From a phage: a stretch of 64,000 bases of DNA. The notes under the pieces are model-generated. The model saw only the letters and a list, made by a program, of their open reading frames with translations, searched no databases and was not told the DNA's origin. The stretch is from the NCBI GenBank assembly GCA_027337125.1, contig GCA_027337125.1_3057.1; one strand, 5' to 3'. The translations under genes and the position numbers were made by a program. Positions 9,790-11,679 of this stretch are shown here, in pieces (the first letter of the stretch is position 1; every line of letters begins with the position of its first letter).

Positions 9790-10818
9790 ATGTCATCAAT
9801 ACCTTGGATTGATAATGAGTTTGCATATCGTGCGCTAGCTCATTTACCTAAATTCACACAAGTAAATAATAGTTCAACTTTTAAATTACGGTTTAGATGC
9901 CCTGTTTGTGGAGATTCAAAAACCGACCAAAATAAAGCTCGTGGATGGTATTATGGCGATAATAATGAAGGAAATATTCATTGCTATAACTGTAACTATC
10001 ATGCACCAATCGGAATATATTTAAAGGAGTTTGAACCCGATTTATATCGTGAGTATATCTTTGAAATAAGAAAAGAAAAAGGTAAAAGTCGTCCAGCAGA
10101 AAAACCTAAAGAACTTCCTAAACAACCTGAGAAGAAAATAATTAAATCTCTTCCGTCATGCATTAGATTGGATAAACTGGCGGAAGACCATCCAATTATA
10201 AAATACGTAAAAGCTCGATGTATTCCAAAGGATAAATGGAAATATCTTTGGTTTACAACCGAATGGCCTAAATTAGTTAATAGTATAGCGCCAGGAACAT
10301 ATAAAAAGGAAATATCTGAGCCTCGTCTTGTTATTCCAATTTATAATGCTAATGGAAAAGCTGAGTCTTTTCAAGGACGTGCATTAAAGAAAGATGCTCC
10401 TCAAAAATATATCACCATCAAAGCTTATCCTGAGGCAACAAAAATCTATGGAGTCGAACGGGTTAAAGATGGTGATGTATATGTTCTAGAAGGACCTATA
10501 GATTCTCTTTTTATTGAAAATGGTATAGCTATTACGGGTGGTCAATTAGACCTAGAAATTGTTCCATTTAAAGATAGACGTGTATGGGTTTTAGATAATG
10601 AACCTCGTCACCCTGACACTATTAAACGAATGACTAAATTAGTTGATGCAGGAGAAAGGGTTATGTTTTGGGATAAATCTCCCTGGAAATCAAAAGATGT
10701 CAATGATATGATTAGAAAGGAAGGTGCAACCCCTGAACAAATTATGGAATATATGAAAAATAATATTGCCCAAGGGTTGATGGCTAAAATGCGGCTATCT
10801 AAATATGCTAAGATTTAA
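9790..10818 (+). CDS. 61: DNA primase gp61 (zinc-finger plus TOPRIM)
   Basis: 342 aa; CPVCGDSK...CYNCNYH zinc ribbon; TOPRIM-like VLEGPID; matches T4 gp61. Confidence 0.93.
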   Translation: MSSIPWIDNEFAYRALAHLPKFTQVNNSSTFKLRFRCPVCGDSKTDQNKARGWYYGDNNEGNIHCYNCNYHAPIGIYLKEFEPDLYREYIFEIRKEKGKSRPAEKPKELPKQPEKKIIKSLPSCIRLDKLAEDHPIIKYVKARCIPKDKWKYLWFTTEWPKLVNSIAPGTYKKEISEPRLVIPIYNANGKAESFQGRALKKDAPQKYITIKAYPEATKIYGVERVKDGDVYVLEGPIDSLFIENGIAITGGQLDLEIVPFKDRRVWVLDNEPRHPDTIKRMTKLVDAGERVMFWDKSPWKSKDVNDMIRKEGATPEQIMEYMKNNIAQGLMAKMRLSKYAKI

Positions 10819-11015
10819 ATTAACCCAACTAAAGCAAATGCTAAATCTACGAATGTATCAAGAGTAATTACTGGAATACTAACGCCATGAGCAATAGCAA
10901 CTGGCGATAAAACAAAATTCCAAAGTAAAATTCCTATCATAGCAGAAATAGTAAAAGCTATACGTTTTTTATTACCTTTGATGGCATTAACAAGTGCCAT
11001 TAATTTTTGTACCAT
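10815..11015 (-). CDS. Small hydrophobic membrane protein (66 aa) on opposite strand
   Basis: Strong SD AAGGAGG 6 nt upstream of ATG on - strand; two hydrophobic segments; no competing + strand ORF in this 300 bp. Confidence 0.55.
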   Translation of the reverse strand: MVQKLMALVNAIKGNKKRIAFTISAMIGILLWNFVLSPVAIAHGVSIPVITLDTFVDLAFALVGLI

Positions 11016-11063
11016 GCGTCGTCCTCCTTTAAATTAATATTTATCGCAAATTTTACAAAATTT

Positions 11064-11097
11064 GTTTACTTTCTCAGCTTGTTATGGTATTATAAAA
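11064..11097 (+). promoter_or_regulatory. Early promoter (GTTTAC 11064-11069, extended -10 TGGTATTATAAA)
   Basis: Consensus early promoter about 25 nt upstream of the 186-aa ORF RBS. Confidence 0.55.
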
Positions 11098-11118
11098 TAA
11101 ACTGCTGAGGATAATATA

Positions 11119-11679
11119 ATGATTAATAAAATTGTACATGAAATGGCTTTAAACGGAGATTCATATAAAATATCTGCCGTAGTTGAGAATTTCATACTTA
11201 ATAAAGTAAAAGAATATTTCACTGATTGTTCAGTTAGTTATCAAGAAAAAATGGTTTTAACTGACGATACTGAAAAATCAAATAATTTGTTTTGTTCGAA
11301 TTTTACCACTAAGAAGCGTACTAGAAGATTTGATATTGTTATTGCTCGTAATGGTAAAAAGCATATAATTGAAATCAAACACCAAGTTGGTGGAGGTACA
11401 GCTATTGATTCGGTTGGAATATATCTGGAAGATAAAGATAAATTAAAAGAATACACAAAAACTGAAAATCCTGTGTCATTGATGATATTAGATTTTTTGC
11501 CATGCGGATATTATCCGCGTAATAAGTGGACAAAAAGAGAATCATTTACTGATAATCCAACCATCCAAGCAAGGTTTAATGAATATGCTAAATCACAAAA
11601 CGTGTTAGTATTACTATCAAATACATATGATGAAGAATTATATAATTCGTTTTTTGCTGCAATAAATGAGAGAATATAA
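11119..11679 (+). CDS. Hypothetical protein (186 aa) with PD-(D/E)xK-like signature, translationally coupled to dam
   Basis: GCTGAGG RBS; motif FDIVI...HIIEIK compatible with a restriction-endonuclease-like fold; stop overlaps dam start (TAATG). Confidence 0.6.

Follow-up and report, generated by a model that had tools for sequence, protein, structure and literature searches.

The Dam methyltransferases of phages T4 and T2 are textbook enzymes, usually treated as orphan methyltransferases. In the restriction-modification (R-M) systems of the DpnII/MboI/LlaDCHI type, a nuclease gene is co-oriented with an adjoining gene for a Dam-family GATC methylase, as seen in plasmid examples, and the same arrangement is found at the phage locus described here. 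We analysed a 64,000-nucleotide (nt) stretch of phage DNA (assembly GCA_027337125.1, contig GCA_027337125.1_3057.1), hereafter called the window in its full length, which is a segment of a Tequatrovirus (T4-like) genome with Escherichia phage EP01 as its closest match (99.1% identity). In contrast to the orphan view, dam is here the second cistron of a putative nuclease-methylase operon, and the dam gene of T4 is preceded by the scar of a 549-bp deletion. The gene order in this part of the window is gp41 helicase, dmd, 61.4, sp, 61.1, primase gp61 (9790-10818), the region under study, dam (11679-12458) and gene 56. A preliminary description had proposed a three-part module in this region, made up of a small membrane peptide encoded on the opposite strand, a PD-(D/E)xK-like open reading frame (ORF) of 186 amino acids (aa), and Dam. 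The sequence confirmed each feature given there at its stated place, namely the two ORFs, the Shine-Dalgarno sequence, the sites resembling promoters, and a TAATG overlap. Our best explanation is that the region holds two unrelated things, namely the small hydrophobic protein gene dam.1 and a nuclease-dam cassette.

The 186-aa ORF (11119-11679, + strand; PHROG 8706) encodes a putative PD-(D/E)xK nuclease, an assignment that draws on invariant residues, an AlphaFold model and weak DpnII matches. Its motif reads F71-D72-I-V-I ... E85-I-K87, in which 12 residues separate D from E, and a D...ExK motif on its own would be unremarkable by chance. The putative catalytic residues E23, D72 (11332-11334), E85 (11371-11373) and K87 (11377-11379) are invariant in nine homologs down to ~30% identity, as is the block H88-Q89...G93-T94-A95-I96-D97-S98. 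The ratio of nonsynonymous to synonymous substitution rates (dN/dS) is 0.10-0.32, which indicates purifying selection, and the protein diverges at about the rate of the primase; conservation and dN/dS together rule out a chance ORF. Structure prediction with AlphaFold2 returned a restriction-endonuclease-like fold (predicted local distance difference test, pLDDT, 80.7; predicted template modelling score, pTM, 0.79), in which strands 66-77 and 80-88 bear the D...ExK motif. When the model was compared with the PDB using Foldseek, all matches with E ≤ 0.01 were PD-(D/E)xK nucleases or nuclease domains, as were most of the weaker ones, and the top structural matches in BFVD were mostly uncharacterised viral proteins, several of them annotated as endonucleases. 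The protein therefore shows both the fold and the motif of the PD-(D/E)xK superfamily in a predicted, not a solved, structure. Overall, the invariant D72/E85/K87, the model and the Foldseek matches support the earlier proposal that this ORF encodes a PD-(D/E)xK protein with a predicted restriction-endonuclease fold.

The family is small, with only 11 representatives among 1.84 billion proteins in an exhaustive profile search and 164 phage records by tblastn, in phage contexts only; P0008, P0010 and P0016 were left out as chimeric or repetitive metagenomic artefacts. The profile search of the 1.84 billion representative proteins found no bacterial source family and no sequences bridging to DpnII. 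A profile search of PDB sequences with the family gave only spurious matches to designed repeat proteins, and an NCBIfam search with the 186-aa protein gave noise only.

The partner gene, dam (11679-12458, + strand), encodes a Dam-family (D12 class) N6-adenine methyltransferase (PF02086, E 1e-50) that is 98% identical to T4 Dam, lies at the same position as in T4, and corresponds to the Dam/DpnM-type partner of DpnII-family nucleases. The stop codon of the 186-aa ORF overlaps the dam ATG (11679) as TAATG. The coupling to Dam that had been suggested from this overlap extends well beyond the window, as the ORF adjoins or overlaps a D12 methylase gene in all eight divergent lineages (8/8). The junction varies in detail: TAATG also joins the genes in a metagenomic T4-like phage (L017), the stop abuts the ATG in a second one (L014), and overlaps are seen in the form of ATGA in the metagenomic locus L018, of 7 nt in Klebsiella phage SmallBear (L003), and of 20 and 35 nt in the metagenomic loci L020 and L019, respectively. 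Adjoining D12-class methylases begin M(L/Y)(L)GAI.YTGNK, and the nuclease ORF is directly upstream wherever the context is readable. Three neighbourhoods were found for the pair: between primase and gene 56, at denB/ndd (SmallBear), and directly upstream of rIIA (L020). The two proteins show correlated pairwise identities (r = 0.86), with the nuclease evolving faster than the methylase. Linkage in three contexts and this correlation of identities are the genetic signature of an R-M pair that travels and is passed on as one unit. A nuclease without a methylase was found in none of the loci inspected (sampled Tequatrovirus rows and metagenomic homologs), and a methylase alone is common. The pair thus resembles type II R-M systems in that the nuclease gene adjoins and is co-inherited with a methylase gene, and in that the methylase alone is tolerated and the nuclease alone is not seen.

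The GATC-specific DpnII family is the only recurring sequence match of the 186-aa family, and it is sub-threshold. DpnII (PF04556) was the top Pfam match for four of the nine family members scanned, with E from 8e-5 to 2.5e-3 and all scores below the 23-bit cutoff. The best of these was P0009 (E 8.3e-5, 22.5 bits against the cutoff of 23), the window protein reached 17.6 bits, again below the 23-bit gathering threshold, and five of the nine gave no DpnII match in Pfam. The PADLOC model REase_II also matches the 186-aa protein (E 5.3e-5). Alignment by hhalign to a DpnII profile of 36 sequences, taken from annotated plasmid systems and database homologs, gave E 2.7e-4 and a probability of 42% over 99 columns, and paired E23, D72, E85 and GG(T/S) with the DpnII invariants E150, D195, E208 and GGS, numbered as in the S. 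aureus plasmid enzyme. Within the DpnII core, D195 / E208-x-N210 / G216-S217-K218, the D, the E and GG(S/T) align, and N and K218 are replaced in the phage protein by K87 and A95, respectively. The alignment covers DpnII profile columns ~137-250 only, which is the C-terminal catalytic half. Common to the two are RFD-x-V/I-I, a stretch of 10-12 residues, I-E-x-(N/K), GG(S/T), and an upstream helix glutamate. Judged by these sequence comparisons, the 186-aa protein would be at best a distant, minimal relative of DpnII, and the criteria of the family itself do not admit it as a member.

The limits of the cassette are seen by alignment with the empty sites of phages RB3 and PP01, which read primase-dam.1-gene 56. 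Similarity between the window and these sites stops after CCTCCTT (11029) and restarts at ATTGCTT (12459), so that promoter, nuclease ORF and dam together make up a facultative cassette, ~1.43 kb long (about 11030-12458, + strand), the right end of which is exactly the dam stop. We read the state of the locus from ~500 Tequatrovirus records. The site is empty, as in RB3 and PP01, in ~63% of them; the full cassette, with the 186-aa ORF plus dam, is present in ~29% (147 records); and dam stands alone, with the nuclease ORF deleted as in T4, in ~7%. Direct comparison with T4 (NC_000866 17626-17934) shows that the segment missing there is 549 bp long (11051-11599, + strand) and bounded by the direct repeats ATCGCAAA / ATCACAAA, a microhomology. 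The deletion takes the promoter, the stem-loop described below and codons 1-160, leaving the last 26 codons ahead of dam, and the T4 junction is matched by 37 dam-only records. An independent 370-bp deletion between GATGATAT repeats is found in phage KarlGJung, where the catalytic core is gone and the promoter is kept. Phage T2 has the 186-aa ORF, which is also contained in the 1988 dam clone M22342, a record that annotates dam only; a one-base difference in T2 causes a C-terminal frameshift that alters the last residues and uncouples the ORF from the dam start. The comparison with T4, T2 and RB3 thus separates the two ORFs of the region, with a homolog of the 66-aa ORF present in T4 and the 186-aa ORF present in T2, reduced to a deletion scar in T4 and absent from RB3. 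The cassette at the primase/56 locus also occurs in phages whose primase is just 60% identical, which indicates that it is old and fits vertical retention with losses. The best explanation of these sequence comparisons is that phages can do without the nuclease and that microhomology deletions have removed it more than once, giving rise to orphan Dam genes of which T4 dam would be one.

The cassette carries its own early promoter (11064-11093, + strand) of the sigma-70/T4-early type, which was read from the sequence and found in a consensus scan. It comprises GTTTAC (11064-11069), a spacer of 17-18 nt, and TG-n-TATTAT with the -10 element at 11088-11093, and promoters of the GTTTAC / TGn-TATAAT-like kind also precede the homologs in L003, L014, L017 and L020. 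A predicted RNA stem-loop (11071-11111, + strand; -12.1 kcal/mol, z = -2.6) brackets the -10 element, and its 3' arm, GCUGAGGA, includes the Shine-Dalgarno sequence of the 186-aa ORF in the window. Stem-loops at the matching place, with different sequences and compensatory changes, were found in L017 (3951-3982), L003 (~3945-3999) and L020 (~90-127) with z from -3.9 to -5.4, so that in four of five lineages such a structure surrounds the -10 element (z -2.6 to -5.4); RNA folding gave none at the early promoter of L014. The stem-loop could serve to keep read-through transcripts from translating the nuclease. In L017, an extra 93-aa ORF (3657-3938) lies between the dam.1-like gene and the nuclease ORF, and the left boundary of the cassette is therefore variable.

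In our view the nuclease-dam pair is probably a type II R-M-like system. Beyond what is demonstrated, namely the gene anatomy, conservation and purifying selection, fold prediction, strict Dam linkage and deletion scars, we infer catalysis, homodimeric type IIP behaviour, GATC specificity, methylation sensitivity and the biological target of the nuclease; GATC specificity and a block by methylation are suggested by the weak DpnII relationship together with the Dam linkage. In the mechanism that we propose, host RNA polymerase would start at the early promoter in the stem-loop and produce one bicistronic mRNA. The first cistron would give a compact (186 aa, MunI-sized) PD-(D/E)xK type II-like enzyme distantly related to the catalytic half of DpnII, and the second would give Dam, translationally coupled via TAATG. 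Dam would methylate GATC on the phage genome as protection, and the nuclease would cut DNA lacking the Dam mark, at GATC or at a site containing GATC. Candidate targets would be under-methylated competitor phages, mobile elements and foreign DNA, and not the Dam-methylated E. coli chromosome.

Several points weigh against this interpretation. E. coli DNA is already Dam-methylated, so the target is not obvious. Support for the putative nuclease comes from sequence and a predicted model, and every DpnII sequence match lies below the curated threshold, with the hhalign probability just 42%. DpnII begins with 120-140 residues, among them the invariant RKNRSG (G..D..G..S..RK.R.G), that have no counterpart in the 186-aa protein, which moreover has ExK where DpnII has ExN plus GGSK; as a consequence, the specificity of DpnII is not transferable to it. 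Its frequent loss shows that the gene is dispensable. T-even DNA contains glucosylated hydroxymethylcytosine (glucosyl-hmC) and resists ~94% of type II enzymes in vitro, so that a need for protection by Dam is not obvious either, and T4 DNA is only partially GATC-methylated, a hazard if hmC DNA were open to cutting by the enzyme (PMC7653180).

One alternative is that the nuclease would instead be a methyl-directed shredder of host DNA, cutting Dam-methylated, cytosine-containing GATC by a DpnI-like logic, with phage Dam completing the methylation of the host chromosome and the phage protected by glucosyl-hmC. Such an enzyme would have an obvious target in Dam+ enterobacteria, and the idea explains why Dam and nuclease are coupled in an hmC phage that hardly needs methyl protection; early expression, as the promoter indicates, and the intrinsic resistance of T-even DNA to most type II enzymes (PMC7653180) also agree with it. 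We nonetheless regard it as improbable, since all the relatives seen at sequence level are of the DpnII type, enzymes that methylation blocks, with no DpnI-like match, and the 186-aa protein is single-domain in the model, without a winged helix or other methyl-reader domain. We also know of no precedent for linkage between a methylase and a nuclease that would itself require the methyl mark so made. A catalytically inert relic, in which the nuclease fold is kept as a DNA-binding accessory or as a regulator of Dam expression or activity, would account for a protein that is much smaller than DpnII, lacks the DpnII N-terminal domain, and is easily lost while dam stays. This too we hold to have a low probability, as homologs of ~30% identity all keep the canonical catalytic residues, acidic ones and lysine alike, a size of 186 aa is also found among active enzymes, such as MunI (200-residue chain), and purifying selection is comparable to that on primase.

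The patchy distribution with a precise empty site is what would be expected of a selfish mobility nuclease that cuts cassette-free genomes in mixed infections in a homing-like manner, so that repair copies the cassette and dam travels as a passenger or immunity gene. The locus is rich in such elements, with T4 segF nearby and segA a few kb off, and the cassette has its own early promoter in a stem-loop of the promoter-early stem-loop (PeSL) kind (PMC2839356). But the nuclease is linked to dam and not to a target site, the same pair being found in three unrelated contexts, and the old cassette at the primase/56 locus (60%-identical primase) fits vertical retention with losses. The T-even homing nucleases known are moreover GIY-YIG or HNH enzymes, and we consider a homing role unlikely. 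In short, compared with a type II R-M-like pair, all three alternatives agree less well with the relationship to DpnII-type enzymes, with a linkage to dam that holds whatever the context, and with catalytic residues that do not vary.

Of the 4-nt palindromes in the window (positions 1-64000), none is nearly as depleted as GATC, with 65 sites observed against ~220 expected, an observed/expected ratio (O/E) of 0.29; the next most depleted is CTAG (O/E 0.70). As the source of this depletion, the window's own cassette was considered and rejected, for dam-less phages are equally or more depleted: the O/E for GATC is 0.35 in RB3 (L028, positions 1-50000), and JK42 and VR26 have 1 and 0 GATC sites in 5 kb, respectively. 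Depletion is therefore a general trait of the Tevenvirinae, seen whether or not a phage carries the cassette. A bolder and rather speculative possibility, to which we give clearly less weight than to the R-M-like reading, is that the pair is an active phage-borne GATC R-M weapon used in competition between phages, or between phages and mobile elements, in Dam+ hosts, that the ~3-fold (or greater) GATC depletion is partly its footprint, and that T4 Dam is a disarmed remnant. If so, this would explain why no clear function has been found for T-even Dam.

The second element of the region, dam.1 (10815-11015, - strand), is a gene for a small hydrophobic protein of 66 aa, recognised from the ORF listing, tblastn, dN/dS and a match to PHROG 2024 (E 1.9e-30); its name comes from the annotation of the RB3 record. 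It is convergent with the primase gene, with a 4-nt overlap with the primase stop, and a dN/dS of 0.15 versus T4 shows purifying selection. The preliminary description gave the protein two transmembrane (TM) segments; hydropathy upholds one clear segment at residues ~19-42, and a second one in the hydrophobic but weaker C-terminal part (46-66), which contains two Asp, is plausible, not certain. A tblastn search found dam.1 in 693 records of phages, among them T4 and members of Mosigvirus and Gaprivervirus, and a hydrophobic protein of ~63-66 aa encoded antisense at the primase 3' end occurs at the same position in T4, JK42 and VR26. In Mosigvirus JK42 and Gaprivervirus VR26 no dam accompanies it at that locus, and in Mosigvirus, Gaprivervirus and most Tequatroviruses dam.1 is present without dam or nuclease at the locus. 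It sits at the primase 3' end in most Tevenvirinae. One module of membrane peptide, nuclease and Dam was therefore rejected: because of its wider spread (693 versus 164 records for the nuclease) and its persistence where dam is absent, dam.1 falls outside the nuclease-Dam cassette, as an independent and far more widespread gene. The preliminary description had also suggested that T4 may encode nothing between gene 61 and dam. While no gene is annotated there, the 309-bp gap between the two holds dam.1, with 5/66 residues different from the window, and the last 26 codons of the 186-aa ORF. The T4 '61-dam intergenic gap' is in other words dam.1 plus the nuclease-ORF remnant, with dam.1 at L001 3739-3939 (NC_000866 17738-17938, + strand), unannotated in NC_000866.

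Expression signals of dam.1 (11023-11045, - strand) were read from the sequence as a Shine-Dalgarno at 11023-11029 and a late-promoter-like site at 11038-11045. The former, AAGGAGG, lies 7 nt ahead of the dam.1 ATG, and the latter, given as GATAAATA on the + strand, begins 29 nt upstream of it. The T4 late consensus is TATAAATA, and a perfect copy is found at one divergent dam.1 homolog locus; ATAAATA occurs 23-29 nt upstream of the ATG in five of seven such loci. A Shine-Dalgarno is seen at every inspected dam.1 locus, in the form of GGAGG or of AGGAG (JK42) or GGTGG (VR26b). These upstream sequences fit late expression, and dam.1 is probably expressed late. A terminator-like hairpin with a T-run (10978-11003, + strand), found by consensus scan only, lies within the dam.1 coding sequence, antisense to its start. 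Transcripts reading through from the primase operon could be halted there, ahead of the cassette, and with the promoter 60 nt downstream the hairpin would form a terminator/promoter composite at this place. We also see two paralogous types of dam.1, type A starting MVQKL.../MFKL... and type B starting MGTLFYQIW..., which share the motif (L/I)WN...P.A..(H/Q)G(V/I)..P. VR26 (L022 2495-2901) carries types A and B in tandem, and the metagenomic phages L016 and L017 carry type B only.

Elsewhere around the locus, T4 has the homing endonuclease gene segF between gene 56 and soc (L001 1607-2281) where the window (~13037-13700) has two small ORFs of ~64-70 aa, an arrangement also seen in EP01, T2 and PP01. 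The block of small genes between gp41 and primase (window 8515-9790) is unlike that of T4 (L001 4967-6554): gene 61.2, which spans 627 bp in T4, is missing from between sp and 61.1, and upstream of sp there is an ORF of 84 aa (9005-9259).

With regard to prior knowledge, the record of phage Shinka (MZ502379) already labels the ORF 'putative DpnII restriction endonuclease'; the other annotated rows among the matches listed read 'hypothetical protein'. A literature search by topic found no description of a nuclease adjacent to T-even dam. What appears to be new is the three-state locus, the deletion scars of T4 and KarlGJung, the three genomic contexts, and the view of T4 Dam as an orphaned R-M methylase. 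The ancestral unit implied is a nuclease-methylase operon, still present in T2 and in ~30% of sequenced Tequatroviruses, of which T4 retains a scar. This would be a concrete, datable example of an orphan methylase arising from an R-M system, and phages already at hand (T2 versus T4 versus RB3) make the role of T-even Dam open to a direct test. If active, the nuclease would represent a rare type II restriction system in a virulent phage with hypermodified DNA, a restriction enzyme that, at 186 aa, is very small and might be of practical use, and a candidate agent of inter-phage exclusion.

The cassette may finally be compared with known systems. PeSL cassettes have been proposed as agents of gene shuffling in T4-type phages, and the present element is like them in being a facultative block in a variable region with a strong early promoter accompanied by a stem-loop (PMC2839356, PMC4122927). 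It differs in that the stem here brackets the -10 element, and in that the stem sequence varies by lineage and does not follow the G-rich/C-rich consensus reported from RB49 and phi1; no second, flanking PeSL was identified at the cassette. From DpnII itself, the phage nuclease differs in its length (186 aa versus ~280-300 aa) and in the replacement of the GGSK lysine (GGTA). The gene order is nuclease then methylase, where most plasmid DpnII-type systems inspected have methylase then nuclease, and unlike those systems the pair resides in virulent hmC phages. In size, the protein falls within the range of active type IIP enzymes such as MunI, with its chain of 200 residues, and the EcoRI segment EAKHQG...AGNAIERS locally resembles a segment of it, an anecdotal likeness without statistical support. 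Neither MunI nor EcoRI was found with the 186-aa profile in PDB sequences at E up to 10, and they recognise CAATTG and GAATTC, neither of which is related to the site of Dam. A parallel of another kind is offered by chlorella viruses, whose type II R-M systems, the GATC-specific CviAI pair among them, also place a nuclease and its cognate methylase in a lytic virus. In the chlorella viruses the target is unmethylated host DNA, whereas the phages described here usually infect Dam+ hosts, so the target of the phage pair must differ.

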